DNA from: Bacteroidales bacterium
GTDB taxonomy: Bacteria; Bacteroidota; Bacteroidia; Bacteroidales; UBA932
Reading direction: 5' to 3'
DNA length: 64,000 bases
Assembly (NCBI GenBank): GCA_011620605.1
Contig: WOYW01000005.1
Span: 32,232-96,231 of the forward strand
Part shown: positions 1,456 through 57,692 of the stretch, piece after piece
Numbering within the stretch: position 1 is the stretch's first letter
Layout of the letters: each line of letters begins with the position of its first letter
Position numbers and translations under genes: made by a program
Notes under the pieces: model-generated
What the model saw: the letters and a program-made list of their open reading frames with translations, nothing else
The model's database searches: none
Told to the model about the DNA's origin: nothing

Positions 1456-2646
1456 TTACCTTTCTTTGGTAAATAAAGCCACGGCATTCACGCCTCCGAA
1501 TCCCATGGAAACGTTCAGAAAACTGTTTTTTCGCGAAGACTGCACCTCGGTAACAACATTTACTTTACCCGGCATTTCTTTCTTATGAAACCCCAGGGTG
1601 GGCAATATTTCTTCATTCTCCAGGGACCTGGCACCCAACACACTGTTCATTAAGCTGGTAGAGCCGGAACTGTGTCCAAAGTTTCCTTCAAAACAATTCA
1701 TAGGCACTCTGCGTAACCCACTCTTTTCCAATACTGTAAGAACCATTTTGTCGTAACTTTTCAGCCCTACACCGTGAACGTTTATGAAGGACAGGTCCCG
1801 GACAGACTCCTCCTGCATTACGGTATGTAAAGCCCGTTGAAGCGCTTTTCCATCCGGATGAGGTTTTTGGGCATAACAGGGATCGTTGGTTACCACACCA
1901 CGTACAAATTTTATAACAGACTGTAAATGAAGGTCCTTCCTGTCTTTGAGGTATCTTTCTTCACTCATGTATATGGTGCAGGAAGCCGATTCTCCTGGAT
2001 TGGTCCCGTCGTAAGTATTATCGAACGGCCGTACAAAATGTTCCGATACAAGTCCTGCACTCCGTAACAAAGCTATAGTGAACATGCTGAGTAATTCCAC
2101 ACCTATAACAACCGCAAAATCGTAAGGACTTCCTTTACACAATAACCGGTTCGCGACGATCTGGGCCTGCAAACCGGACAAAGATGAATTCATGACTACA
2201 TAGGGTCTCCCCGGTAATTTCAATTCATCCATCATCCGTTGAGGGACGTGCCAGGGATAAAGCCGGGGCCTGGTAGTATGATCGCTCAGCTCCCTGTATG
2301 AATCCACATCGCCCTTGGTTGTACAGAATACTAATGCTACCTTACGACTGGATAAGATCTCGTTACGGTATTGGTCGGGAACGGTATTGGATACAGCCGA
2401 TTCAAAGACAGCAGACATTGCCTGGCGGTAACGGGACATGGCGTGTGTACGTGCTCCGCAATAGGGCGCCGCCAAAGCTTCCAGATCCCGCGGACTGATA
2501 AGAGCGGCCTTAATAGGATAGGGCATGTTCCGGAATCCGGCCTGAAACTGCCTGATCCCGGTATAACCAGCTTTAACGGCCTGATAATTTTCCTCGGTAG
2601 TGGCTCCCAAAGGTGATATTATACCGTCACCAATTTTATACATCAT
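1456..2646 (-). CDS. Beta-ketoacyl-ACP synthase family protein (KS-like, Ser at the nucleophile position)
   Basis: The 396-aa product has a thiolase/KAS I-II-like layout. The His motifs are present (INVHGVGL, GNFGHSSGSTS). The segment aligned to the ATACxSG nucleophile block reads MNSSLSG. Confidence 0.7.
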   Translation of the reverse strand: MMYKIGDGIISPLGATTEENYQAVKAGYTGIRQFQAGFRNMPYPIKAALISPRDLEALAAPYCGARTHAMSRYRQAMSAVFESAVSNTVPDQYRNEILSSRKVALVFCTTKGDVDSYRELSDHTTRPRLYPWHVPQRMMDELKLPGRPYVVMNSSLSGLQAQIVANRLLCKGSPYDFAVVIGVELLSMFTIALLRSAGLVSEHFVRPFDNTYDGTNPGESASCTIYMSEERYLKDRKDLHLQSVIKFVRGVVTNDPCYAQKPHPDGKALQRALHTVMQEESVRDLSFINVHGVGLKSYDKMVLTVLEKSGLRRVPMNCFEGNFGHSSGSTSLMNSVLGARSLENEEILPTLGFHKKEMPGKVNVVTEVQSSRKNSFLNVSMGFGGVNAVALFTKER

Positions 2647-2681
2647 ATTACTACAAATTTATGAAAATTTCCAGAATATGA

Positions 2682-2689
2682 TAAATTTG
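2682..2689 (+). promoter_or_regulatory. Bacteroidota -7 promoter box (TAAATTTG) for the patatin gene; mirrored copy at 2654-2661 serves the divergent KS-like gene
   Basis: The box matches TAnnTTTG and lies 14 nt before the ATG at 2704. It is part of a perfect 12-bp inverted repeat, ctacaaatttat (2651-2662) and ataaatttgtag (2681-2692). Confidence 0.45.
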
Positions 2690-2703
2690 TAGAAAAACCT
2701 GTA

Positions 2704-5037
2704 ATGAAGTCTGTAACCTTTCTGGGAATATTGTTTTTGAGCGTTTTTCCCTGCTCTGCCACATTGTTCGGAATCCCTAATGATATTTGCCGGGGCGGAG
2801 ACGTTGTGGCAGAAGCAGTGCCCGGAACGGACGGAAGTGTGCCCAGGCGGAAGAAGGTGGGTCTGGTGCTGAGCGGAGGAGGAGCCAAAGGGATCGCTCA
2901 CATTGGGGTTTTAAAAGTGCTTGAAGAAGCCGGCATCCCCATTGATTACATTGCCGGAACCAGCATGGGAGCCATCGTGGGCGGCATGTACGCCATAGGC
3001 TTCAGCCCGGCTGCCATGGACAGCATCATGCGCATCCAGAACTGGCTGAACTTATTGAGCGACAAGATCACCCGTGACAAACTCTTTTTCACTGAAAAGG
3101 AAATTTCTGATAAATCCCTGATCACCATTCCTTTTGATAAAGACCGCTTTTACATATCTACCGGGTTGCTCAGCGGCGGTACCGTTATGGATATGCTGAG
3201 CGAATATACCGTGGGATACCACCAGATGGAAACCTTTGACGATCTGCCCATTCCCTTTGCCTGTGTAGCTTACGACCTGCTTACGGGAGATGAAGTGGTC
3301 ATGCGGGAAGGAAGCCTTCCGCTGGCTATCCGTGCCAGTATGTCCATTCCAGGAGCTTTCACCACTGTGGAACGGGGGAACCGGGTCTTGATAGACGGCG
3401 GGGTGATCAACAATTTTCCGGCTGATGTTGTCAAAGAAATGGGAGCCGAGATCATCATTGGCGTGGACGTGAGCATGATGACACAGAACCGGGAAGATCT
3501 TAAAAGTGGAAAAATTACGGAAGCAGACCGGAACAGCCTCCTGTTCATTATAGATCACATGATGGAACGGATTGGACGGGAAAAGTTCGATAAAAATAAA
3601 AAGCTGACGAATCTGTACATCCACCCCGATACGCATCCATACACCACGGCCAGTTTTACAAAAACGGCCGTTGATTCCTTGTTGATCCGGGGTGAACGCA
3701 TTGCCCGCGAGAACTGGGATGCCATTATGGCCGTCAAGGAACTTATTGGGATCACCCCCCTGGATGATGTCAAACTGCCTCCAAACCGGCCTGAAAACAC
3801 CAATGACCCTACACGGGACAGCATCCGGGTGGGTAATATTTTCTTTTCCGGGATCAACACACTCAATGAAAACAACCTGCGGCGTATGCTTCGATTCAAG
3901 GAATTTTCCACCATAAGCCGTGAAACAATTTCCGAAGCGCTGGACCGTATGAACGGGACTGGCAGCTTTTCTTCACTGACTTATTCCCTGGTTCAGGAAG
4001 AAGATCATTTTAACCTGACTTTTGATTGCCGGGAACGATCGCGCAGTGCCATCAGCGTAGGCATCCGTTTTGACACCCGTGACATTGCAGTGGGGTATTT
4101 GAACGGTGTTTTTGCACCCCGCGATCTGAAAGGCGGGATGCTGGAGGTCACAGGAAGGCTTTCCACCAATCCCTACATAAATGCGGGCATTTTTTACCAG
4201 GATGCCTGGCTGGGAAGGTTTGGCCTTTCGTATACCTACCGGTATGGGAACGTAGATATGTACACCAACAGCGACACTACATCCTATAACATCCGTTTTC
4301 ACCAGAACCGCCTGAATTTTGACGTAGCCAACTTTTATTACAGGAATTTCAACATTTACCTGGGGGCGCGTTATGAAAATTACCGGTCTCCGCGCATGAT
4401 CACTGTGAATGAATCTGCCGCAAACCGGACAAGCATTAAAGAAAATCTTATAAGTTACAGGGCTGGAGTGCGCTACGACAGCTACGACAATGCCTATTAC
4501 CCTTCCAAAGGTGTCCAGTTTAACGCCGAATATGCCTTATATACAGATGACTTTTCACAATTCCGGGACGGAATGCCCTTTTCGGCATTTTCAGCTTCCC
4601 TCTACATAGCCGTTCCGGCAACAGAGCATTTGACCATTGTTCCGGCACTTTACGGGAGGTTTCTCTATGGTGAGGAATTTGCATTCTTTCAACAGAATTT
4701 TGCGGGTGGCACGTACGGCGGGCATTACATAGAGCATCAACTGCCGTTTTACGGCTTCCAGCCCACGGAAGTAGTGGAGAATAAATTCCTGGCAACGTGT
4801 GTGGAAGCACGTTACCGCCTGGGGCAGAATCATTACTTTTGGGTCAAGGGAAATGTTGCCAGGATAAGCCGTTCAACACTGGAACTGATAGAATGGGACA
4901 AAGGTATGTATATGGTTGGGGCCGCTGCCGGGTATTCCTTTGACAGTCCCCTGGGACCTATAGATTTTTTGGTAGAATACGGGTTGCACCCGGGTGCCAA
5001 ATTTGGCGTCTACATTAATCTGGGGAAGTATTTCTAA
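2704..5037 (+). CDS. Patatin-like phospholipase fused to a C-terminal Omp85/surface-antigen beta-barrel (PlpD-like)
   Basis: The 777-aa product has a signal peptide and the patatin motifs GLVLSGGGAKGIAHIGV and GTSMGA. The long C-terminal half is Tyr/Gly-rich with alternating beta strands and ends in ...INLGKYF. Confidence 0.85.
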   Translation: MKSVTFLGILFLSVFPCSATLFGIPNDICRGGDVVAEAVPGTDGSVPRRKKVGLVLSGGGAKGIAHIGVLKVLEEAGIPIDYIAGTSMGAIVGGMYAIGFSPAAMDSIMRIQNWLNLLSDKITRDKLFFTEKEISDKSLITIPFDKDRFYISTGLLSGGTVMDMLSEYTVGYHQMETFDDLPIPFACVAYDLLTGDEVVMREGSLPLAIRASMSIPGAFTTVERGNRVLIDGGVINNFPADVVKEMGAEIIIGVDVSMMTQNREDLKSGKITEADRNSLLFIIDHMMERIGREKFDKNKKLTNLYIHPDTHPYTTASFTKTAVDSLLIRGERIARENWDAIMAVKELIGITPLDDVKLPPNRPENTNDPTRDSIRVGNIFFSGINTLNENNLRRMLRFKEFSTISRETISEALDRMNGTGSFSSLTYSLVQEEDHFNLTFDCRERSRSAISVGIRFDTRDIAVGYLNGVFAPRDLKGGMLEVTGRLSTNPYINAGIFYQDAWLGRFGLSYTYRYGNVDMYTNSDTTSYNIRFHQNRLNFDVANFYYRNFNIYLGARYENYRSPRMITVNESAANRTSIKENLISYRAGVRYDSYDNAYYPSKGVQFNAEYALYTDDFSQFRDGMPFSAFSASLYIAVPATEHLTIVPALYGRFLYGEEFAFFQQNFAGGTYGGHYIEHQLPFYGFQPTEVVENKFLATCVEARYRLGQNHYFWVKGNVARISRSTLELIEWDKGMYMVGAAAGYSFDSPLGPIDFLVEYGLHPGAKFGVYINLGKYF

Positions 5038-6244
5038 CCTGTCTGACAAGTACTTTATCTATCCGGGCAATATCCATATCCACAATCTCTATGGACAATC
5101 CTTTCCAGAGAAACGTTTCTCCCGTTACCGGTACGTGTTCCAGAATATCCAGTATTAATCCGCTCAGGGTGTTGTAATCGTGTTCCGCGGCCAGGTCTTC
5201 CATATCAAAATGTTCCAGGAAGGCATAGAAGTCGCATTGCCCGTCAACCAGGAAAGAACCGTCGGCGCGTGCTATGATGTCATGATCCTCTTTGTTTTCG
5301 GGCAATTCTCCTATGATGGCTTCCATGATATCAGAATGGGTCACCATTCCCTGGATACTGCCGAATTCATCGGTAACCAGGGCGTATTTGCTGTAGGCAA
5401 TCCGGATCTGTTCCACGGCGGCATATACGCTTAAATTTTCCGGCAAAAAGAGGGGTTTGTGGATCACGGAACGCAAATCGAATCCTTCTTTGTCGATCTT
5501 TCCAAAAAGGTCTTTCATATAAACCACTCCCAATAGCTGGTCCAGGTCTTCATCGGCTACGGGATAGATCCCATGCAGGTTCTGCTTGACCATATCCATG
5601 ATCATTTCTATGGGATCGTTTATATCAAGCCATACCAGGTCACTACGGTGCGTCATAACGGTTTCAATGGTACGGTCACCCAGGTTGAACACGCGTTCAA
5701 CCAGTTCCTGTTCCACTTCCCGGATCTCGCCATCCTCTCGGCCTTCTTCTATCAGGGCTTTGATCTCGTCTTCGGTGACCTTGGCTTCTTTCATATCTGA
5801 AAGACCGAAAAGCATCATGATTCCCTTGGTGCTTTTGGAAAGGAGCCACACAAAAGGATAGGTCAACTGCCGCAACAGTTTCATCAGCCCGGACATGGCT
5901 TTGGCGATCTTGTCTGCGGCCATCATGCCCAACCGCTTGGGGACAAGTTCCCCTATGACCAGCGTCAGGTATGTTACAATGGTTACTATCAGCACGTTGG
6001 ATATCCACTGCGCATGCTTTTCCAGGGGCGCCCACCGGGCCAGAATTACTGCCAGGTCACCGGAAAGCCGGTTTCCTGAAAAAAGTCCTGTCAAAATGGC
6101 TATCAGGGTAATGCCTATCTGAATAGTGGATAAGAAACGGTCGTCTGCCTGCTGCTTATACTTACGGGATGATACGAAGGCCATTTCGGTCATAGACAGG
6201 ATCCCGTTTAAAAGAATAAGTGCCAGTATAATAATTATTTCCAT
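5015..6244 (-). CDS. CNNM/DUF21-CBS-CorC_HlyC family membrane protein (hemolysin-like, putative divalent-cation efflux)
   Basis: An N-terminal TM domain is followed by a CBS pair and a CorC/HlyC-type C-terminus. The start was moved to the ATG at 6244 (MEIIIILALILLNG...), because the 19 upstream track codons overlap the DedA gene. Confidence 0.85.
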   Translation of the reverse strand: MEIIIILALILLNGILSMTEMAFVSSRKYKQQADDRFLSTIQIGITLIAILTGLFSGNRLSGDLAVILARWAPLEKHAQWISNVLIVTIVTYLTLVIGELVPKRLGMMAADKIAKAMSGLMKLLRQLTYPFVWLLSKSTKGIMMLFGLSDMKEAKVTEDEIKALIEEGREDGEIREVEQELVERVFNLGDRTIETVMTHRSDLVWLDINDPIEMIMDMVKQNLHGIYPVADEDLDQLLGVVYMKDLFGKIDKEGFDLRSVIHKPLFLPENLSVYAAVEQIRIAYSKYALVTDEFGSIQGMVTHSDIMEAIIGELPENKEDHDIIARADGSFLVDGQCDFYAFLEHFDMEDLAAEHDYNTLSGLILDILEHVPVTGETFLWKGLSIEIVDMDIARIDKVLVRQVRNTSPD

Positions 6245-6858
6245 AGTATCCTCCAGATGATGTATCCCAGGGCCAGCACACCTATACCCAGCAATATCCA
6301 TGATATCTGGGCTGTATATTCATGTACCTTTTCCATGAGCTGGTCCTTTCCCACCACGCTGTGCAACGAATAACCTATGACGGCCAGGATAGTGTTCCAT
6401 GCACCGGCACCCAAAGACGTATACAGCACAAATCGTCCCAGCGGCATCCGGGCCAGTCCGGCCGGAATGGATATCAGCTGGCGAACGGCAGGCACCAGGC
6501 GGCCGATCAGGGTGGACAGGTTTCCGTAACGCACAAAATAAGACTCGGCTTTCATCATTTTCTCTTCGTTAAGAAGAAAGGCATGTCCCAAGTGCGAATT
6601 TACAAATTTATAGATAATTGCACGGCCGATCCAAATGGAAAGGCTATAATTGATCAGGGCTCCGACAAGGGCTCCGGCGGTGGCAGACAATACTACCAGT
6701 ACCACGTTCATATCTCCGGCGGCAGCCAGATACGCTGCGGGCGGCACTACGGTCTCGGAAGGGAAAGGGATGAACGAACTTTCAATGGTCATCAACAAGG
6801 CCACCGTCCAGTAATTGAGGTGTTCCAGCGCCCATTGAATGAAAGACAAAGATTCCAT
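6235..6858 (-). CDS. DedA family membrane protein
   Basis: The 207-aa product contains ...ESSFIPFPSETVVPPAAYLAA... and a typical DedA/SNARE-associated topology. Confidence 0.85.
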   Translation of the reverse strand: MESLSFIQWALEHLNYWTVALLMTIESSFIPFPSETVVPPAAYLAAAGDMNVVLVVLSATAGALVGALINYSLSIWIGRAIIYKFVNSHLGHAFLLNEEKMMKAESYFVRYGNLSTLIGRLVPAVRQLISIPAGLARMPLGRFVLYTSLGAGAWNTILAVIGYSLHSVVGKDQLMEKVHEYTAQISWILLGIGVLALGYIIWRILWK

Positions 6859-7976
6859 TATTGTGTTCCCATGATTTGTTGTATACGTGACGAGGCTTTG
6901 AGCCCGTGCCCGGTAAGGGGTACCACTACCCTGTCAACGGCCGACAGGCGGTTACCGTATTGCTTTAAGGCAGCAACGGCCGAAGCCGATGTGGGTTCCA
7001 TGAAAACTCCCTGATGTGCAGCCATTTGCAGTCCTTCCACAATATCCCGGTCTGTAACTGTTACCGTATCACCCCCTGTTTCCTTTACGGCCTGCAGGAT
7101 CTGTGACAAACGGGCGGGATGACGTATGGCAATGCCTTCTGCCAGAATGGGTGTTTTGGGGAGCTCAGGCGTTACTTTACCCAGGGCAAAATTTTTCACA
7201 GGCGTGCAATGTTCGCTTTGCACGGCCATCAGTCGCGGATATTTTGTTATCAGACCGGCACGTTTCATTTCCTGCAATCCCAGACAGATACCCAGAAGCT
7301 GGGTGCCGCTTCCCACCGGAATAAATATGTATCCCGGCGCATCCCAGTTCATTTGTTCCATGATCTCGTAGATCACGGTCTTGGTCCCGTGCAGGAAATA
7401 CGGGTTCCATATATGTGCCGCGTAATAACTGTCAGCAGCGGCTTCTTCCGCTGCCATGGCGCAATCGGTACGGTTTCCCGGTATTTTGTGGAGCGTTGCT
7501 CCGTAGGTGCTTACCTGGATGGTTTTTGCCGAGGAGTTTCCTTCGGGCATAAAGATGTGGGCGTCTATCCCGGTCAGTGCGCTGTAAGCGGCAACGGCCG
7601 ATGCCGAGTTTCCGGACGAGTCTTCCACAATATGGGAAATGCCCAGTTCGCGGCATTTGTTGATCATCACGGCGGCTCCGCGGTCTTTAAAAGAACCGGT
7701 GGCCAGCAGGTAATCCATTTTCACCTGTACGGGTATCCCGTAAAACACCATGGGATGCAGGGGTGTGGGATTCTCCCCGAACGAAGCGGCGTTTTTGGGA
7801 TTACGTAACGGGAGTACACTGCTGTACCTTTGCAGGAAATGGTTGCCTTGAAAATTAGTAGGATCGGGCCGGAACGTTTCTTTTAGGTCCAGGTAACTGC
7901 CGCAACGGCATCGCCAGACAACGTCGTCTTCCGGGTATTGGGCCCCGCAGGCAGGACATATGAGAGTTCCGTCCAT
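6858..7976 (-). CDS. Threonine synthase-like PLP-dependent enzyme with an N-terminal zinc ribbon
   Basis: The product has CPACG...CRCG at the N-terminus, the PLP lysine block SFKDRGA, and EDSSGNSASAVAAY. Confidence 0.7.
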   Translation of the reverse strand: MDGTLICPACGAQYPEDDVVWRCRCGSYLDLKETFRPDPTNFQGNHFLQRYSSVLPLRNPKNAASFGENPTPLHPMVFYGIPVQVKMDYLLATGSFKDRGAAVMINKCRELGISHIVEDSSGNSASAVAAYSALTGIDAHIFMPEGNSSAKTIQVSTYGATLHKIPGNRTDCAMAAEEAAADSYYAAHIWNPYFLHGTKTVIYEIMEQMNWDAPGYIFIPVGSGTQLLGICLGLQEMKRAGLITKYPRLMAVQSEHCTPVKNFALGKVTPELPKTPILAEGIAIRHPARLSQILQAVKETGGDTVTVTDRDIVEGLQMAAHQGVFMEPTSASAVAALKQYGNRLSAVDRVVVPLTGHGLKASSRIQQIMGTQ

Positions 7977-50015: not shown

Positions 50016-50030
50016 GTGCCCGGAACAGGA
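50016..50030. repeat. att direct repeat (left): duplicated 3' end of tRNA-Leu
   Basis: gtgcccggaacagga is identical to 57608-57622. Confidence 0.85.
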
Positions 50031-50262: not shown

Positions 50263-51624
50263 ATGGCTACATTTACTTTAATACTTTCAAGTAAAGTAGA
50301 TTATCTAACAAGAAAAACGGAAATTTCCATTAGACTCCGACACGGAAAACACATTGACCAACAAGCCGGAACATTTATTTATGTACTCCCAGAATTCTTC
50401 TCAAAGGGTCATATTGTAACTAACCAAAGATTCATAACAAAAAAGGTAAAAGAAGCCCAGCACGCCAGATGGAATCTGGAGAACCTTATCAATCACATCA
50501 CTTCGAGATTTCAGGAGGAGGTTGTTAATGGCAAACTGCCCAGAAAATGGCTGTTTGATACCATAGACAAATACACTTTCCCGGAACAGTATGAAGTAAA
50601 AGAAGAAAAACTGAAAACTCCTTTTTTTGATCTGTTTTATGAATACATACATTCACAGAAATTCAGTCAGAGCCGAATCAATCATTATATGGTTCTTTAT
50701 CGTTGTCTAAAACGTTTTGAGCTATATAACTACCTCGACTTGGACATTGATACTTTTTCAAGTGAAAACCTCGAAAAGTTCAATTCCTTTTTGGCTAACG
50801 AATACGAAATGTTTGCTCCTGATAAAGATGGAATAATGCAGCCAAAACAGTCATACAAAAAGATCTACGAAACGTTCCGGGAACGAAGGATCCCCAAGAA
50901 AAGAGGCGATCACTATATTTCCGGTCTTGAAACCCTACTTAAGACTTTCTTCAACTGGTGTATCAAAAAAAATAAAACCACCAATAATCCATTCCATACT
51001 TATTCAATTAAATCCGTTGAATATGGAACGCCCTATTACTTGACACAGGAAGAACGGGACCAAATATACCACACTGATTTTACCGCAAATCCCAAAATGG
51101 AAATCCAACGGGATATTTTCATTTTCCAATGTTTAATCGGATGTCGTGTAAGTGACCTTCTGAGATTGATACCTGAGAATATTATAGTCAACGAATACGG
51201 AACAGCGATTGAGTATATGCCCCAAAAAACCAGGGAACAAAACGCGAAAGTGGTGAAAGTCTATTTAAATGAAACAGCCCTTCAAATAATCAATAAGTAC
51301 AAAACGCCTGAAAGAAAGAGTCTCCTTCCTTTCATATCCTCACAGAAATATAATGACAACATTAAGAAAATTTTGCACGACTGCGGGATCAATCGATTGG
51401 TAACAGTTCTTAATCCCACCACCGGAGAACCCGAACAGCGCTATATAGCAGACATAGCATCATCTCACATAGCACGACGTACATTTATTGGAAATCTTTA
51501 CAAAAAAGTCAAAGATCCAAACCTCGTCGGAAAGTTGTCCGGACATAAAGAAGGGAGCAAAGCATTTGTACGGTACAGGGATATCGATGATGAAATACTA
51601 AGCGACCTCACGAATCTAATATAA
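50263..51624 (+). CDS. Tyrosine-type site-specific integrase (Bacteroidota phage-integrase family)
   Basis: The 453-aa product has an arm-binding N-terminus. The catalytic blocks are GCRVSDLLRL, HIARRTFIGNLY and GHKEGSKAFVRY. Confidence 0.9.
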   Translation: MATFTLILSSKVDYLTRKTEISIRLRHGKHIDQQAGTFIYVLPEFFSKGHIVTNQRFITKKVKEAQHARWNLENLINHITSRFQEEVVNGKLPRKWLFDTIDKYTFPEQYEVKEEKLKTPFFDLFYEYIHSQKFSQSRINHYMVLYRCLKRFELYNYLDLDIDTFSSENLEKFNSFLANEYEMFAPDKDGIMQPKQSYKKIYETFRERRIPKKRGDHYISGLETLLKTFFNWCIKKNKTTNNPFHTYSIKSVEYGTPYYLTQEERDQIYHTDFTANPKMEIQRDIFIFQCLIGCRVSDLLRLIPENIIVNEYGTAIEYMPQKTREQNAKVVKVYLNETALQIINKYKTPERKSLLPFISSQKYNDNIKKILHDCGINRLVTVLNPTTGEPEQRYIADIASSHIARRTFIGNLYKKVKDPNLVGKLSGHKEGSKAFVRYRDIDDEILSDLTNLI

Positions 51625-52126
51625 TTTGCTGAAACACTAAAAGAAGAGAATGGTATAACTCAAACCTACCCCTATGTATGGGACCGGCTTGGATACCTAT
51701 CCCCCACCGTTGAGGTTTGTTGGGTTTCTGGTGGATGGTTGTTGAGGTGATGACTTGATGGGTGTTCCGGAATATGTGGATGCTGTCCAGTGCGGGACGA
51801 TAGCCGGAGATCCAGGCCCGGAAGTTTTCTTCCCGGTAGATCTTTTGTTCCCTGGGAAGGTTGAGGTAAACGGTGTCTTTTACCCGGATGGTGTCTGTTA
51901 CCGCAACCAGGAACGTGTCGATACTCCTGATGATTTTCGGGACCGGTTTCACGATGCGGATGGTATCATGAAGGTATAAGGTGTCCACCTGGACTATGAT
52001 CTCTGTACCCGTGTCATTTTTTTTATTGCACCGGTCAATGGTGATCAGGCCGATGACAGCCAACAGGAATACAATGAAAATGCCTCCGATACGGGCGTAT
52101 AATTTTATGTATTCTGCCGGGATCAT
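51608..52126 (-). CDS. Phage lysis-cassette membrane protein (spanin-like), possibly frameshifted near the 3' end
   Basis: The ATG at 52126 overlaps the endolysin stop in an ATGA. An N-terminal TM helix is present (IGGIFIVFLLAVIGLITI). An alternative frame after about 51690 reads ...PYIGVGLSYTILFF*, which looks like a more natural C-terminus. Confidence 0.45.
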   Translation of the reverse strand: MIPAEYIKLYARIGGIFIVFLLAVIGLITIDRCNKKNDTGTEIIVQVDTLYLHDTIRIVKPVPKIIRSIDTFLVAVTDTIRVKDTVYLNLPREQKIYREENFRAWISGYRPALDSIHIFRNTHQVITSTTIHQKPNKPQRWGIGIQAGPIHRGRFELYHSLLLVFQQIILDS

Positions 52127-52560
52127 AGGATTGCCTTCTTGTAGGATGGGTCGTACAAGACCTGGTGACGTTGGGGACCATGTGCCTTGAACGAAAGATG
52201 CAAATGCGACCGGTAAAGGATCATCTGATCGAAAGGCAGGCAGTGTCTGAGGACCACCTGTGCCAGGAACAAGGCTTCCAGGGCATCCTTGCAAAACAAA
52301 TCGGCGGCTTCTCCTTTCATGTGCTGGGAGCTGATGGATCCACCCACTGCCCTGTTTAATGCCGGGCACCGGTACCCGCTTGCCACCACCAGAGGCCGGT
52401 GCAGCTGATTCCTCAACGGTTGGAGCAGGTTCATGACCAGGATCCGCAGTGCAAAACGGATCTTGTCGGACGGGATCCGGTTGTCTATGCCGAGTTCTTT
52501 GGCTTTGCTGCTGCGCTCAAATTCCTCGTATTTAAAGTGATTGGATATGGGTGTGCTCAT
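52123..52560 (-). CDS. Peptidase M15 (D-Ala-D-Ala carboxypeptidase-like) endolysin
   Basis: The product contains FKYEEFERS and VVASGYRCPALNRAVGGSISSQHMKGEAADL. The ATG at 52560 overlaps the upstream stop in an ATGA. Confidence 0.8.
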   Translation of the reverse strand: MSTPISNHFKYEEFERSSKAKELGIDNRIPSDKIRFALRILVMNLLQPLRNQLHRPLVVASGYRCPALNRAVGGSISSQHMKGEAADLFCKDALEALFLAQVVLRHCLPFDQMILYRSHLHLSFKAHGPQRHQVLYDPSYKKAIL

Positions 52561-52937
52561 TGTTTTTCCTTTTTGTCCATAAACTGTTTTACCTCTTCCG
52601 TACTGCCGAACGGCGGCACCCGTCTGGTGCATTTGGTGACATAACAGCGCATCAGTTGGGATACGGCAAAATTGGTATTCACCCTATCGAGTTGGGTCCG
52701 CAAGTCCGTGTTTATATCATAGAGCTTGTCAATCTTGACGGTAGCCGCTTCATACTTTTTATTAAGCGCCAGGAAATCACGCTCCTTCTGTGCAACAATC
52801 AATTGCCATTGCTCGTTGACCTTTTCGGTGTTGGCCAGTTGGGCTGCCGCTTTCTTTTCCGTGATCAGAAACAAGGCAACAAACCCTCCGGTGCCAATCA
52901 ATGTGGCAATCAGTTGTATGATTAATTCAGGAGTCAT
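52557..52937 (-). CDS. Phage membrane/coiled-coil protein (possible holin or lysis regulator)
   Basis: The 126-aa product has an N-terminal TM helix (LIATLIGTGGFVALFLI) and is the first gene of the ATGA-coupled triplet. Confidence 0.4.
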   Translation of the reverse strand: MTPELIIQLIATLIGTGGFVALFLITEKKAAAQLANTEKVNEQWQLIVAQKERDFLALNKKYEAATVKIDKLYDINTDLRTQLDRVNTNFAVSQLMRCYVTKCTRRVPPFGSTEEVKQFMDKKEKQ

Positions 52938-53034
52938 ACCATGCAGCTTAAAAAGAAATCCCTGCTTTGTATCACTACAAGGCAGGGAGTGGTCAGATAA
53001 AGGCTAGGAGAAGAAAAAGAGTGGAAATTTCATG

Positions 53035-53292
53035 TTATACGCTAAGTGTAGCCAGGGCCATCATCTCGCCTGATTTCTCGCCGGTAGCGGTGTTGACATA
53101 AAACCATTTCACAAATACTTTCGGATTGGCTGCGTTCGGTGCCTCATACTTGGCATCGTAACCGGTTTTGAGATCAATGGCGGTTTCAACAGGAGTCAGC
53201 GGATCACCAATGACGGTTGCCTTGGCGTAGGCATCGCTGATCCCGTTGGACTGGGGCATGGATGCCTTGACAACCAGTTTGAGGTTGGTCAC
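53035..53292 (-). CDS. Hypothetical protein, probably the 3' fragment of a truncated phage gene
   Basis: The track start is a GTG. The open frame continues upstream to about 53376 without any ATG and ends at the junction with the RT remnant. A terminator-like hairpin follows at about 52957-52990. Confidence 0.3.
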   Translation of the reverse strand: MTNLKLVVKASMPQSNGISDAYAKATVIGDPLTPVETAIDLKTGYDAKYEAPNAANPKVFVKWFYVNTATGEKSGEMMALATLSV

Positions 53293-53392
53293 GTCAACGG
53301 GGATGCTGTCCAGGGTGATGGTGAAAGCACTGGCACTGAGGGACAGTGTATTTTCCTGATTTAGGTTGACTATTTTTAGCCTTTATCCCTAT

Positions 53393-53693
53393 GGAGCGAA
53401 TGAAGTGGTCAGTACGCTTAATGCCATAATGTGTTCCTTTTCCTATACGGCAACTGTAACTGTCATTGATAAAAGTCTTTTCAAGAAAGGGCGATATGTA
53501 GTTGTATATAAAATGGTGAATCACCCTGTCCCTGAAATCGGCAAGAGTAAACAGGATTGGTTTCCAGGTGCTTTTCAAAGGCAAGCGCATTTATGGTGTT
53601 GCGTTTGTTTTTTCGAGCTTCAAAATATGCCTGAAACAAATCCAGTGTGATTTTCTTTTTATTTACAGAGGGGAACAATTCCGGTTGTAACAT
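53393..53693 (-). pseudogene. DGR-type reverse transcriptase, 5' remnant only (internal deletion/frameshift and 3' truncation)
   Basis: Frame 1 from the ATG at 53693 reads MLQPELFP...LFQAYFEARKNKRNTINALAFEKHLETN. A second frame continues ILFTLADFRDRVIHHFIYNYISPFLEKTFINDSYSCRIGKGTHYGIKRTDHFIRS, comparable to the Bordetella Brt block ALEFKDRLVQHAL...YACRPDKGTHAG. The RT motifs beyond that point (including YxDD) are missing. Confidence 0.75.
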
Positions 53694-53758
53694 ATGTATT
53701 TCTATAAAAAAACAACCACGGAGATTGCTTTTCCGTGGTTGTAAAGTTTTCTTTTCAA

Positions 53759-53947
53759 ATCCCGTACACAACGAACAGAAAACCCGTTTCCCTTGTTGTT
53801 GTTGTTCCTGTTTACGTTGCTGTTACTGTTGTTCAGGTTCCGGTTCCAGGCGTTATTTGTATTGTTCTCAGTAGAACTCCACCAGTTGCCTTTGTTACCA
53901 ATGTTGTTGAATGTTCCATTGTTGTTACGGTAGCCACCCGGAATGGC
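53759..53947 (-). repeat. DGR template repeat (TR)
   Basis: A gap-free 189-nt match exists to 54503-54691. The coding strand is rich in AAC/AAT; the track ORF 53702-54001 reads NNNGTFNNIGNKGNWWSSTENNTNNAWNRNLNNSNSNVNRNNNNKGNG. Confidence 0.9.
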
Positions 53948-54119
53948 AGTAAAATTAACCACTTGCTTTGTTGACGCGGCATTTTCAGCCACTTCAATCA
54001 CTTATAGCTAACATTAACCTGCTTTGGGTATGACAGGAATTTATAATGCCAGCGGGTTACCGGATTTAAAATGCTCGCTCGGGCTAGCCCTGGCGTGCCC
54101 GACTCCGGCAGAAAACTTA

Positions 54120-54461
54120 TTATTCTTGACTTTTTTGCCACCCTGTTAATTGTTTTGACACATTCTCGACCACCTGGTTTATTTTAACAAACTTCTCAAG
54201 GCTTATTTGTTTCATGTCTTTCATAAGACGGATAAACAAACGAATAACTTCTATCTGCTCACGTGCCGTTTGTAATATTTCTGTCTTTTAGTATTTTGAA
54301 TTCGCACGGTAAATCAGCGTAAGTAATTCAATCGTCTCCTTTTTCAGGCTTTCACCCACTGTATATTTATACTCCCTGCTAAAGTCCCTGGTGAACTGAA
54401 AAATGGACAAAAGCAAATCGTACGTCGCCTTATAAACCGGAAGTTCATTATACTGACCCAA
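54120..54461 (-). pseudogene. avd: Avd (DGR accessory variability determinant, four-helix-bundle protein) with an in-frame TAA
   Basis: Own translation from the TTG at 54461 gives GQYNELPVYKATYDLLLSIFQFTRDFSREYKYTVGESLKKETIELLTLIYRANSKY*KTEILQTAREQIEVIRLFIRLMKDMKQISLEKFVKINQVVENVSKQLTGWQKSQE*. The premature stop is at 54288-54290. Confidence 0.75.
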
Positions 54462-54496
54462 AATTCACAATATCAAATAGACAAATAGTCTAATAG

Positions 54497-56584
54497 TCAA
54501 TTATCCCGGACACAACGAACAGAAAACCCGCGTTCCTTGCTGTAGCTGCCCCTGTAGACGCCGCTGTGACTGTAGTACAGGCACCGGGACCAGGCGCCAC
54601 TTGTAGTGTACTCAGTAGAACTCCACCAGTCGCCGTCGTTACCAATGTCGTAGAATGCCCCATCGGTGCTACGGTAGCCACCCGGAAGGGCTGAAAAACC
54701 CGATTTATATCTATATTCAGGATAATCGGTGTTCCCTGCTGCACCTTCGCTGGTTGAACTTTTCCAACAAATATTAGCAACCAAAGCTACAGCAAGTTTT
54801 TCTCTTACATCTGTGCCTCCTATTGAAGCATCGTATTTGTAGCCATTATTAGCTAAGTAAGTTTCAAGTTGTGTCCACTCATTATCACTTGGCAAATGCC
54901 AGCCCGGAGGACAGGCCGCCAGTGCAGCTGGCCAGTTATATAACACCCCATAGGTTTGGTAATTGGTTGTTGTTTTTGCCTCTGTATAGCTTGTGCCATT
55001 ATAATCGTATACATAATAATAAGCTGAGTTGGCTGATCCTGAAGTTGGCAGACTTACTGATGGCAGATATGCTAGATTTTCTGCCATCCACACTTGTTCG
55101 CCAAGGGTTACCATTTTGTAAACATGGCCATCACGGGAATCGACAAACGTAGCTCCCCCTTCTCCCTGGTTTGTTGTGAATGCTCTCTGCTCCCCATATG
55201 CAGTCCCCTCTGAGTTCGTCGCATATGCCCTGACATAATAGGTTGTATTAGGCGACAGGCCGGTGATATTGCCAGTATAAGTGCCCAGGCCACTGCCGTT
55301 AGTTGTCTTGGAACTTGAAGTTGTGGGATTTTCAGAGGTGTTCCAGCAGACGCCACGGGCAGTAACCCTTCGCCACCCTTCATAAGTTACTTCACTGTCA
55401 CAATCTGCAGTTGATCCCGTAATATTATTGATGGAGGAAAGATTCACAGTTGGTAATACCTGGTAGCCATCAGGAGGAACAATATAAAATGGAGTAGAAG
55501 CGTGTTTTTGAAGACCATCAAAGGTGTGAACGACAGTAAATCCGTTATCATATAATCTAACATTTGTCTCGCTAAAAAACCCGTTAACTGTAAACTCATA
55601 TGCATCCAGAAAACCAAGGCCAGAACAGAAGTTTTGAATCATTGATAATGATGCTCTGTGTATCTCAGGTATATACATCACTCTTTCATATCCATTATAA
55701 GCCTCAGCCCCAAGATCAAAAAAAGCTTTAGACAACGATCCTTCTACATTATCCCAAACTGATGTTTGACACCCATTAACAAACACCCATGTATTGCTAA
55801 AAAATTTATCACTAGGCGTTGTTTCAAATAACCACTCTGGAGTTATTCCATACCAGGTTCCACTAACACCCCCTGCCCCTGATTTTTCCCACCCCTTTTG
55901 ACCGTTTGACTTTAGCTGTTTAGTTCTTTCTCGCGATACTTTTTCACCGGTACAAATCATGGTATTTTTTTCACCATCAAATAAAAAACTGCCCCCATGT
56001 GTATATATAATTACTATATCATATAAACTCATAAATGAACCTCGAAATTTATCAATATCTGCATCTTCATTAATGAATTGATGCGTTATATATCCAGAAT
56101 TCTGCAATTTGTTGCAAATCGCTTCCAAATCTGTATGCAGTTGAAATTGAAAAGGTGCCAGAATTAAAGCTTCTCCATCACCACTTGGTTTTATTATGTC
56201 CGAAGTCTGTGTTTGTGTTATTGTCTTTGTTTTTAAAGGCTCCGACTTCGTTGCTTTTGTTTCATTCGTGGTAAACCATTTGTCATCTGTTATATCCACA
56301 AAAAAATAGTATAACTCGGTGCCATCGGTAAAATTCATAAGTATTGTACTGCTAGAAGCTTTTGCCGATACCACGTCTTCTAACAATTCAATTTTTTCCG
56401 CAATTGCATTAGGATCTACCAGCTCATCTGTTTCGATAGCATTAGCAAGTGTACTTTCTACAATTGTTTCGGCTTGAGCAACAATTACTTCGATTTCTTC
56501 TGGGGTCATACCTTCTTCGATGGCATCCTGGCCACAACCGAACAGAGAAATGCTCATAATTAGTAGTAAGATAGTCTTTTTCAT
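54497..56584 (-). CDS. DGR target lipoprotein with a C-terminal FISUMP (Fibrobacter succinogenes major paralogous) / C-type-lectin-fold domain
   Basis: The lipobox is ISLFGCG. The FISUMP signature FVDSRDGHVYKMVTLGEQVWMAENL is present, and the VR-encoded C-terminus is ...GFSVRCVRDN. Confidence 0.9.
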   Translation of the reverse strand: MKKTILLLIMSISLFGCGQDAIEEGMTPEEIEVIVAQAETIVESTLANAIETDELVDPNAIAEKIELLEDVVSAKASSSTILMNFTDGTELYYFFVDITDDKWFTTNETKATKSEPLKTKTITQTQTSDIIKPSGDGEALILAPFQFQLHTDLEAICNKLQNSGYITHQFINEDADIDKFRGSFMSLYDIVIIYTHGGSFLFDGEKNTMICTGEKVSRERTKQLKSNGQKGWEKSGAGGVSGTWYGITPEWLFETTPSDKFFSNTWVFVNGCQTSVWDNVEGSLSKAFFDLGAEAYNGYERVMYIPEIHRASLSMIQNFCSGLGFLDAYEFTVNGFFSETNVRLYDNGFTVVHTFDGLQKHASTPFYIVPPDGYQVLPTVNLSSINNITGSTADCDSEVTYEGWRRVTARGVCWNTSENPTTSSSKTTNGSGLGTYTGNITGLSPNTTYYVRAYATNSEGTAYGEQRAFTTNQGEGGATFVDSRDGHVYKMVTLGEQVWMAENLAYLPSVSLPTSGSANSAYYYVYDYNGTSYTEAKTTTNYQTYGVLYNWPAALAACPPGWHLPSDNEWTQLETYLANNGYKYDASIGGTDVREKLAVALVANICWKSSTSEGAAGNTDYPEYRYKSGFSALPGGYRSTDGAFYDIGNDGDWWSSTEYTTSGAWSRCLYYSHSGVYRGSYSKERGFSVRCVRDN
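54503..54691 (-). repeat. DGR variable repeat (VR) at the 3' end of the target gene
   Basis: Hand alignment to the TR shows about 35 mismatches. All but one or two fall where the TR coding strand has A. Confidence 0.9.
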
Positions 56585-56596
56585 TATTGTAAGGTT

Positions 56597-56899
56597 TTAA
56601 TTAAAATCCGTTTTATAGTTAAGTAAACTGCAAGCAAAGCTATAGCTCACATTCATGTATTCTAACTGTGTATCATTACATGGAGCCGGCTGTTTTTCAA
56701 TAACGGATTGCCAATTTATAAGATGGTCCATGGAGTTGGTACTAATTGACACCAGCACTCTACTCCCTTTCCAACCACTAAGAGAAAAAGTATAGACGTA
56801 TCTTAGGTTTTGATGAAACCGTAAGGCAAAATGAGTAGAAAGGAAAATCAGATCCTTTACCTGTTGCCTGAATACTCCGGTAATTAAAGCCGTAGACAT
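56597..56899 (-). CDS. Hypothetical protein (island-borne)
   Basis: The 100-aa ORF ends 12 nt upstream of the DGR target start. No motif was recognised. Confidence 0.35.
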   Translation of the reverse strand: MSTALITGVFRQQVKDLIFLSTHFALRFHQNLRYVYTFSLSGWKGSRVLVSISTNSMDHLINWQSVIEKQPAPCNDTQLEYMNVSYSFACSLLNYKTDFN

Positions 56900-56921
56900 T
56901 ATATGTTAAGATTTTATAAAT

Positions 56922-57305
56922 TTAGCCACAATATTTGACAACTTCAAGAAATAGCTGATTTAGTATATATAACTTTGATTCCGGTTGGTTTGAGTTTGAG
57001 TTTGAGTTTGGTAACATTGGCGCTTTGGCTTGGTGTAACTGGCTGAATATGACAGAAAACACTTCGCAATAATCATCGAAACTCCTAACTTTACGCATTG
57101 CTGCACCAGTAACATCTTTTGAGAATGAATAATGAGGTCCCCAACTATCGTCAAAGTGCCATCCCAGGTTTTGAAGATATGTAATAACCGCAATCTCATT
57201 TGCAAATGCCTTGCGTAGCCCTACACCGTCGTCAATGTACCCGGTACCGAAGCTAATCTGAACCTTTGCATACCTGACCTTTAATGTAATCTGAAAGATA
57301 ATCAT
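56922..57305 (-). CDS. Hypothetical protein (island-borne) containing an NSNSNS repeat
   Basis: The 127-aa ORF is co-directional with the DGR target. No motif was recognised. Confidence 0.4.
   Translation of the reverse strand: MIIFQITLKVRYAKVQISFGTGYIDDGVGLRKAFANEIAVITYLQNLGWHFDDSWGPHYSFSKDVTGAAMRKVRSFDDYCEVFSVIFSQLHQAKAPMLPNSNSNSNQPESKLYILNQLFLEVVKYCG
56988..57010. repeat. Hexanucleotide tandem repeat (gtttga x3.8)
   Basis: gtttgagtttgagtttgagtttg was read directly. It is in-frame within 56922-57305. Confidence 0.7.
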
Positions 57306-57608
57306 TTATTTATAGATCAGAATATCAATACATTGAAAAAAGCGTCAATATTATTGACAAAGCATTAAGTATAAACCACACAAGACATTATCATTAGCAA
57401 ATAAAGGCACCTAAAAAAGGCATCAAAGTATTAATTGTTTATCTTTGTTTCGCAAAGCAGACAAATGAGGTCTGTTTTTGTGTGCATGAAGCATCCTGGA
57501 ATAAATTTCTTGGGATGCTTTTTTATTAAGTCGGGGATATCATTGTGGATTTTTAAAAGCAAAAAAACCACAAATAGTTGATAATAACCAATTTGTGGTT
57601 TTAAGGGG

Positions 57609-57692
<84 letters not shown>

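Follow-up and report, generated by a model that had tools for sequence, protein, structure and literature searches.

We analyzed a 64-kb stretch of DNA from a Bacteroidales bacterium (the window), which is part of a 119-kb contig (WOYW01000005.1) and carries a diversity-generating retroelement (DGR) at positions 53393–56584, with all parts on the minus strand. The target gene, an open reading frame (ORF) for a predicted lipoprotein of 695 amino acids (MKKTILLLIMSISLFGC...), spans 54497–56584, and its final 63 codons form the variable repeat (VR, 54503–54691). Downstream lie an avd pseudogene (54120–54461), a structured RNA resembling the Rfam motif RT-7 (53948–54109), the non-coding, adenine-rich template repeat (TR, 53759–53947), a 65-nt spacer (53694–53758), and the remnant of a reverse transcriptase (RT) gene (53393–53693). 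The order target-avd-TR-RT is the one proposed in an earlier reading of the letters without database searches (the sequence-only reading), with the RT-like stretch ending at its start coordinate, 53393. Searches for RT, avd and VR sequences covered the 64-kb window. Our results make it very probable that the locus is a genuine DGR with this layout, from a Bacteroidales lineage whose VR lies in a FISUMP domain, and that it is now disabled. The element cannot work on its own.

A repeat search recovered only one long direct repeat in the region. Positions 53759–53954 and 54503–54698 align over 196 nt without gaps, at an offset of 744 nt and with 81% identity, which reproduces the gap-free alignment of VR to TR described earlier and extends the homology to 54698. 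Of the 38 mismatches that we counted over the 196 nt, 36 fall on adenines of the TR (A>G 18, A>T 9, A>C 9); the other two are a T>A at 53948, on the edge of the repeat, and a G>A at TR 53790 / VR 54534. In the 189-nt core, 35 of 36 mismatches fall on adenines, which make up 69 of the 189 TR bases (hypergeometric P ~1e-17). The hand count of about 35 differences, nearly all at TR adenines, was thus borne out by computation, and tabulation by TR base showed the mismatches to be concentrated on A and not spread over the four bases. They are distributed over codon positions 1, 2 and 3 as 19, 13 and 4. Read in the frame of the target, the TR has 20 AAC and 3 AAT among its 63 codons, and 22 of these 23 are altered in the VR. 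Both peptides quoted in the sequence-only reading, TR-encoded and VR-encoded, matched exactly on re-translation. Over the final 27 nt, TR and VR differ at a single A>C position. No GC-rich hairpin was evident just 3' of the VR, signals of the initiation of mutagenic homing (IMH) type being functionally undefined for this lineage.

For comparison, 80 metagenome loci with a close avd (77–97% identity) were collected; these and other related loci are given here by L numbers where they need to be told apart. When the TR was aligned with the TRs of ten relatives, the window differed from all ten at 53944, 53891 and 53790, and at each of these positions the window VR had the base of the relatives. 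The lone non-A mismatch of the core is probably explained by a change of the TR after the last homing event, because the G at 53790 stands against an A in the TRs of all ten relatives. The TR changes at 53944 and 53891 may have the same post-homing origin, and A>C mutagenesis could mimic such a pattern. The 35 adenine-specific differences between TR and VR record the last homing event.

A Logan contig of run SRR10568511 crosses VR and TR unbroken and weakly hints at a single allele. A contig of the second sample reaches only the first 196 target codons, and a look-up of the TR ORF matched one sample only. Within the protein collection, the target in its exact form is a singleton. The orthologue cluster P0094 (38 members) shows only two VR alleles in its ten full-length members, where hypervariation had been expected, and is uninformative on the VR of the window.

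The gene between VR and TR had been taken for an avd homologue, and a profile search agreed, with a match to Pfam bAvd at E 5e-15 when the stop codon was bridged. Its score against NCBIfam DivGenRetAVD was 63 bits, under the cutoff of 80. The gene shares 93% identity with the avd of L013, which is intact. In the window an in-frame TAA at 54288–54290 ends Avd after 57 of 113 residues; in two close relatives the codon at this position is AAG (Lys) or CAG (Gln). No second avd was found in the window, and the avd query had no match among viral contigs.

The RT remnant matches amino acids 1–46 and 80–129 of a DGR RT of about 400 residues (tblastn) and retains about 96 of some 400 codons. Alignment of the DNA with L097, L098 and L101 revealed three lesions. 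The reading frame is shifted by +1 through an extra C at 53554/53555, 87 nt are deleted at 53543|53542 between direct repeats of GCCGAT, and past 53393, after 'DHFIRS', homology is wholly lost. Beyond this break the window reads ATAGGGATAAAGG, whereas intact RT coding would read 'CSRNYTKDCYILKLD...'. Because of these lesions RT motifs 3–7 are absent, all catalytic motifs included; competence of a DGR RT was judged by motifs 1–7, including [I/L/V]GxxxSQ and YxDD. What is left of the gene is 86–97% identical to the RTs of relatives, and its only significant match in the PDB was the Bordetella phage RT 8ub7 (E 6e-7). These matches identify the fragment, by sequence resemblance, as a descendant of a DGR RT. 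The earlier assignment to the DGR clade is therefore upheld as to ancestry, while a match to the Pfam RT profile was not obtained. Tblastn detected no second RT or further RT sequence elsewhere in the window. Among viral contigs the stub matched a single distant locus, L081, at 40% identity.

A protein search with the stub returned only short fragments (≤180 aa) and no full-length RT, and full-length RTs were obtained from the metagenome loci retrieved by avd. In 39 of the 80 avd loci at least 1.7 kb of sequence was available downstream of avd, and 35 of these 39 encoded a full-length RT. Five sampled full-length RTs (e.g. those of L097 and L089) have 401–423 amino acids and carry IGNLTSQLFGN and YVDD, and the RT of L097 matches PHROG 1423 (E 4e-101). 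The TR/VR pairs of the relatives span about 197 nt, with 24–35 mismatches at A and few or none elsewhere, in the same layout as the window.

Several relatives depart from this pattern. L082, L083, L087, L130 and L013 have avd without an RT in the 2.5–6 kb downstream, which is about one in ten of the cassettes with enough sequence. In L098, the closest relative of the window, RT homology breaks at another place (L098 1170–1292) and is followed by an ORF starting MTKERRTF..., which we take for a transposase by resemblance only. In L012 (2430–2700; Bacteroidales metagenome-assembled genome STF1_27), the TR site is occupied by a sequence like the VR, which lacks the adenine richness of a TR and is interrupted by in-frame stops; a FISUMP gene comes directly after it, and an RT is absent. 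Loss or overwriting of the TR would explain this, as would a chimeric assembly. With RT missing or interrupted in L098, L012, L013, L082, L083, L087 and L130, RT loss appears to recur in the lineage.

On the far side of the RT break, a junction segment (53350–53392, minus strand) separates the stub from the 3' fragment of a phage-island gene (53035–53349, minus strand). The fragment comprises the last ~105 codons of a gene whose intact form in L004 encodes 228 amino acids, and is 85% identical to L004 4288–4596 (tblastn). Over a longer stretch, window 51684–53349 is 78% identical to L004 5950–4288 (blastn), where the counterparts are the intact 228-aa protein, a 126-aa protein, a Peptidase_M15 endolysin and a DUF6808 protein. 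That a truncated RT and a truncated phage gene meet within 53350–53392 indicates deletion or illegitimate recombination. The comparison points to a rearrangement that would have cost the RT its 3' three quarters and the phage gene its 5' half. In viral contigs, an exact-pattern scan found no copy of the junction sequence, and blastn of 53000–54500 against 50,697 phage records gave no match. Insertion of the integrase segment into the RT was considered and rejected, because there is no 3' part of the RT on the far side and the end of the island is marked by a copy of the tRNA 3' terminus.

We then compared the window with Logan contigs of runs SRR10568511 and SRR10568503. A contig of SRR10568511, from an independent assembly, equals the window over 58584–53366 with 0 mismatches in 5219 nt; the avd stop, the frameshift and the 87-nt deletion are all in it, and it runs 27 nt past the RT break. 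It stops at 53366, and a neighboring contig of the same run and the SRR10568503 contig end at about 53395. The adjoining SRR10568511 contigs overlap by 30 nt at 53366–53395. Logan uses k = 31, and a branch node in such a graph would leave an overlap of 30 nt; the overlap therefore indicates that the assembly graph branches at 53366–53395. These samples probably contain a second context for the sequence below 53395. This alternative context was not found, a look-up with the 126-aa protein giving only the same two contigs. There is a small chance that other alleles coexist; the junction itself is spanned by a contig.

Between avd and TR, the window matched Rfam RT-7 (RF03028) with 66.1 bits (E 1e-14) over the whole model, positions 1–191, under the gathering score of 116.8 bits. 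The element was present at the same site in 11 relatives (57–91 bits), including L097 1687–1848, L101 2343–2503 and L012 2270–2431. Its 3' end abuts the TR and overlaps the first TR bases in the window as well as in all five relatives that were checked. The structure tested was the RNAalifold consensus with one short hairpin swapped for the long-range stem of Rfam. In 27 distinct sequences 96% of cells were paired and 12 pairs were changed on both sides; these values were reached by 0 of 500 shuffles, and slid controls had at most 44% of cells paired. In 22 relatives one strand of the long-range stem (GGUAACC/GGUUACU) reads GGTTACT; only the window reads GGTTAAT there, and its A at 53955 (C>A) breaks one pair of the stem.

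The E value of 1e-14 together with the 12 covarying pairs indicates a related structured RNA. Like RT-7, the element covers the full model, has a 5' hairpin followed by a long-range stem enclosing two further hairpins, and neighbors an RT gene. Unlike the Rfam members, those of this lineage score 57–91 bits, below 116.8, and always lie between avd and TR. On this sequence evidence the window RNA is best regarded as a divergent subgroup of RT-7. The motifs RT-1 to RT-19 were described by Weinberg et al. as neighbors of RT genes; of these, RT-10 alone was linked to a DGR, and RT-7 was left without an assigned function in the original description (PMC5737381). RT-7 was named nowhere in the literature searched. 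The position of the element suggests that, in some DGRs, an RNA of the RT-7 type forms the 5' domain of the template RNA. The region also had weak Rfam matches to His_leader, CrcZ, snoU54 and RT-15, which were taken as chance.

The spacer between TR and RT consists of a conserved A-rich linker (GGGATTTGAAAAGAAAAC), a hairpin at 53712–53742 and a T-run. The hairpin is a terminator-like site with a 13-pair stem. In 19 relatives RNAalifold gave 9 pairs, 6 of which showed compensatory changes. This hairpin may be a terminator, an attenuator, or a counterpart of the priming spacer of phage BPP-1. Promoters of Bacteroidota differ from the sigma-70 consensus, and sigma-70-type promoter matches were disregarded because that consensus is not of the Bacteroidota type. 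For the DGR RNA of this lineage we infer the order RT-7-like domain, TR, linker and hairpin. In the BPP-1 paradigm, the TR is copied into complementary DNA (cDNA) starting at its 3' end and moving toward its 5' end. Since synthesis proceeds toward the 5' end of the TR, the upstream RT-7-like domain could, by this analogy, bound the cDNA; alternatively it could scaffold the RT-Avd complex.

The target lipoprotein has a signal with a lipobox (..LFGC) at its N-terminus, followed by a caspase/CHAT-like region (approximately aa 138–336), an Fn3-like segment and a FISUMP domain (aa 479–694). The claim that the diversified scaffold is a FISUMP domain found clear support, with Pfam Fib_succ_major (PF09603) matching aa 492–693 at E 1e-35 and TIGR02145 matching at E 2e-36. 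Wu et al. assigned FISUMP/DUF1566-type domains to the CLec2 class (PMC5758913). No second FISUMP gene or TR-like sequence was found in the window. We compared 14 full-length or near-full-length orthologues, which are 45–73% identical to the window target, 73% being the best match in the genome collection. The lipobox C17 is invariant across all 14, as are H196 (THGG) and C272 of the N-terminal domain (window 55577–56173, minus strand). In the AlphaFold2 model, the predicted local distance difference test score (pLDDT) was 80–93 over most of aa 138–336 and the overall mean was 57. Confidence was low over most of aa 369–635, with residues 369–486, 490–515 and 579–635 below pLDDT 50, and the model did not confirm the C-type-lectin fold proposed in the sequence-only reading.

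The N-terminal domain had no Pfam match. Foldseek ranked SAVED-CHAT 8tl0 best (E 3.6e-4), then Csx29 TPR-CHAT, DdvA and separase, with TM-scores of only 0.15–0.26. We take all four to be caspase-like. The caspase/CHAT-like (clan CD) identity of the domain is suggestive and not proven, because the TM-scores in these model comparisons are low. As modeled, the target appears to be a fusion of a putative cysteine protease with a hypervariable binding domain. Other DGR target classes also carry protease-related domains (PMC5758913). A different arrangement of FISUMP domains was seen in L002, where a 1550-aa protein (2461–7113) has five of them in tandem, each with a terminal VR-like ...GFSVRC(L/V)(R/K). 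That gene is followed by a truncated avd and no RT, and lies in an integrase-bearing element related to the island that holds the window DGR.

This island is bounded by a tRNA-Leu (CAG) gene identified by ARAGORN (57607–57692, minus strand). The 3' end of the tRNA gene (57608–57622) is repeated as a 15-bp direct repeat, GTGCCCGGAACAGGA, at 50016–50030, a distal copy resembling an attachment (att) site; the exact 15-mer occurs twice in the window. A tyrosine integrase of 453 amino acids (50263–51624, plus strand; Pfam Phage_integrase; PHROG 1, E 1e-17) is encoded at the end far from the tRNA, 230 nt from the distal copy, which lies upstream of it. Next to it is the remnant of a lysis module with three genes on the minus strand (51608–52937), for a 126-aa protein (52557–52937), a Peptidase_M15 endolysin (52123–52560; Pfam; PHROG 894, E 6e-29) and a DUF6808 protein (51608–52126; Pfam). 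A match to phrog_26448 also lies inside the island. Between tRNA-Leu and the target are two small ORFs of 127 and 100 amino acids (56597–57305, minus strand). They had no Pfam or PHROG match, and blastn found both kept upstream of related FISUMP targets in L001, L018, L020, L022 and L035.

The 7.6 kb between the 15-bp copies thus hold the integrase, the lysis remnant, the truncated phage gene, the DGR remnant, the target and the two small ORFs. GC content falls to 35% at both island ends, compared with 47–50% beyond the tRNA. The island shows the hallmarks of integration at a tRNA gene: an integrase, direct repeats of the tRNA 3' end, and genes of phage type within it. With no structural or replication genes left, it is a remnant. 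From its gene content we read it as a heavily deleted prophage-like element at tRNA-Leu, with att sites deduced from the repeats. In the related loci L002, L004 and L013, too, an integrase is found together with FISUMP targets, avd, and phage or primase genes.

Taken together, the RT stub and the avd stop make the locus a DGR fossil and not a working system. The DGR interpretation of the sequence-only reading thus stands as an identification, by the adenine-specific pair, the Avd homology and the RT ancestry, but not as a description of a functioning element. Nor is the cassette free-standing in the chromosome, since it is part of the degraded prophage-type island. By analogy with known DGRs, the TR would have been transcribed in an RNA with the RT-7-like domain 5' and the hairpin 3' of it, and an RT-Avd complex would have copied this RNA into cDNA with misincorporation opposite adenines. 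The cDNA would then have replaced the VR and so re-randomized the ligand-binding surface at about 23 positions coded as Asn. Inactivation would have come afterwards. About three quarters of the RT is gone, with all catalytic motifs, and one rearrangement fused the stub to the truncated phage gene; the stub also has the 87-nt deletion between short repeats and the +1 frameshift, and avd has the nonsense codon. We infer this order of events, and the present inactivity, from the state of the sequence. Since RT and avd are both broken, the VR is most likely frozen. The lipoprotein ORF is open, and the protein is presumably still expressed with the variant last written. The unique TR changes, the avd stop and the broken RNA pair fit a cassette under relaxed constraint.

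Three points weigh against a simple fossil. A helper RT is possible beyond the window. Little damage is seen in the TR, the RT-7-like RNA, the spacer hairpin or the target ORF, a state that fits very recent inactivation but would also fit continued use in trans. In addition, the assemblies break at the RT junction, and some cells or related elements may carry another join.

The alternative that survives best is that the pair is non-autonomous but active, with RT and Avd supplied by a DGR of the same lineage elsewhere or by a co-resident phage. Genomes with several DGRs, and VRs remote from their RT, have been documented. The near absence of damage in the four elements just named would be expected of such a pair, as would the single non-A mismatch in the 189-nt core, and the recurrence of avd cassettes without an adjacent RT (L082, L083, L087, L130, L012 and L013) could reflect supply in trans. 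However, a second RT or avd was not found in the window, whose own avd is broken too, as expected if the whole cassette is drifting. Window-only substitutions are present in both the TR and the RT-7-like stem, one of them breaking a pair. The Logan contig is also unbroken through VR and TR with no heterogeneity evident, although this evidence is weak. We consider the trans-supplied pair unlikely. About equally doubtful is its wider form, a 'satellite' DGR made up of TR, RT-7-like domain, hairpin and VR that is rewritten by the RT-Avd of a related DGR. If it were true, avd/TR cassettes lacking RT would be a trans-serviced class and not debris, and the RT-7-like RNA would be a recognition handle.

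It is much less probable that the damage is an artifact of misassembly or sequencing error and that the real RT and avd are intact. The contig is of a metagenome-type source, two Logan assemblies end at 53366–53395 with a graph branch at the RT junction, and the extra C sits in a CC dinucleotide, possibly a context prone to indel errors. Nevertheless, four lesions of different kinds recur without a mismatch in 5219 nt from another assembler. The Logan contig also continues 27 nt past the RT break, which places the junction k-mers in the reads, though these may be the same reads as those behind the NCBI contig. No leftover RT sequence was found elsewhere in the window.

A simple duplication of the gene's 3' terminus, diverged by normal mutation or gene conversion, accounts for the existence of a repeat and nothing more, and we regard it as scarcely credible: it is refuted by the mismatch spectrum, in which 35 of 36 differences lie at adenines of one copy and go to all three other bases (P ~1e-17), and has no place for the template of AAC codons, the adjoining avd and DGR-RT remnants, or the dozens of relatives with an intact RT.

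The preferred reading, a disabled DGR, was set against known systems. The locus resembles the DGR of Bordetella phage BPP-1 (mtd-avd-TR-brt) in gene order, C-terminal VR, A-specific differences, Avd, and phage-derived DNA as its carrier. It is unlike BPP-1, whose target Mtd is a tail-fiber protein, in that its target is a bacterial-type FISUMP lipoprotein. Moreover, its RT and avd are inactivated, and a GC-rich IMH with a downstream cruciform was not recognized after the VR. BPP-1 has the Rfam RNA RT-10 between TR and RT (PMC5737381), whereas the window has an RT-7-like RNA between avd and TR.

Another counterpart is category 'd', with VRs of the CLec2 type and DUF1566/DUF823/Fib_succ_major targets, which made up 14% of the set of Wu et al. 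and has Legionella pneumophila LdtA as its exemplar (PMC5758913). The window locus belongs to this class. It shares with the class a VR in the FISUMP/DUF1566-type C-terminal domain of a lipoprotein with signal peptide and lipobox, as well as avd. As points of difference, it comes from a Bacteroidales lineage, its target has an added caspase/CHAT-like domain and Fn3-like segment, and its enzyme genes are decayed. In Treponema denticola isolates, DGR targets were retained after RT and TR had been lost (PMC4891356). As in those isolates, the core of the window DGR is lost while a diversified target persists. The window keeps the whole TR and stubs of RT and avd, which corresponds to an earlier stage of decay; the targets of T. 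denticola are of the FGE-sulfatase type, and that of the window is FISUMP.

Catalogued DGRs number in the tens of thousands. As a DGR the locus adds little, and the class with a FISUMP/DUF1566 lipoprotein target and avd has already been described (PMC5758913). What it offers is a cleanly dated case of DGR decay, in which the last mutagenesis is still legible and RT and avd are already broken. It is also a warning that a perfect A-biased TR/VR pair does not imply a working system. The orphan RT-7 motif is placed at the 5' edge of the TR across a DGR lineage, which gives a hypothesis for how cDNA may be bounded or scaffolded in DGRs unrelated to that of BPP-1. Finally, the frozen target, in which a hypervariable binding domain appears together with a caspase/CHAT-like domain, would be of interest for studies of DGR targets.

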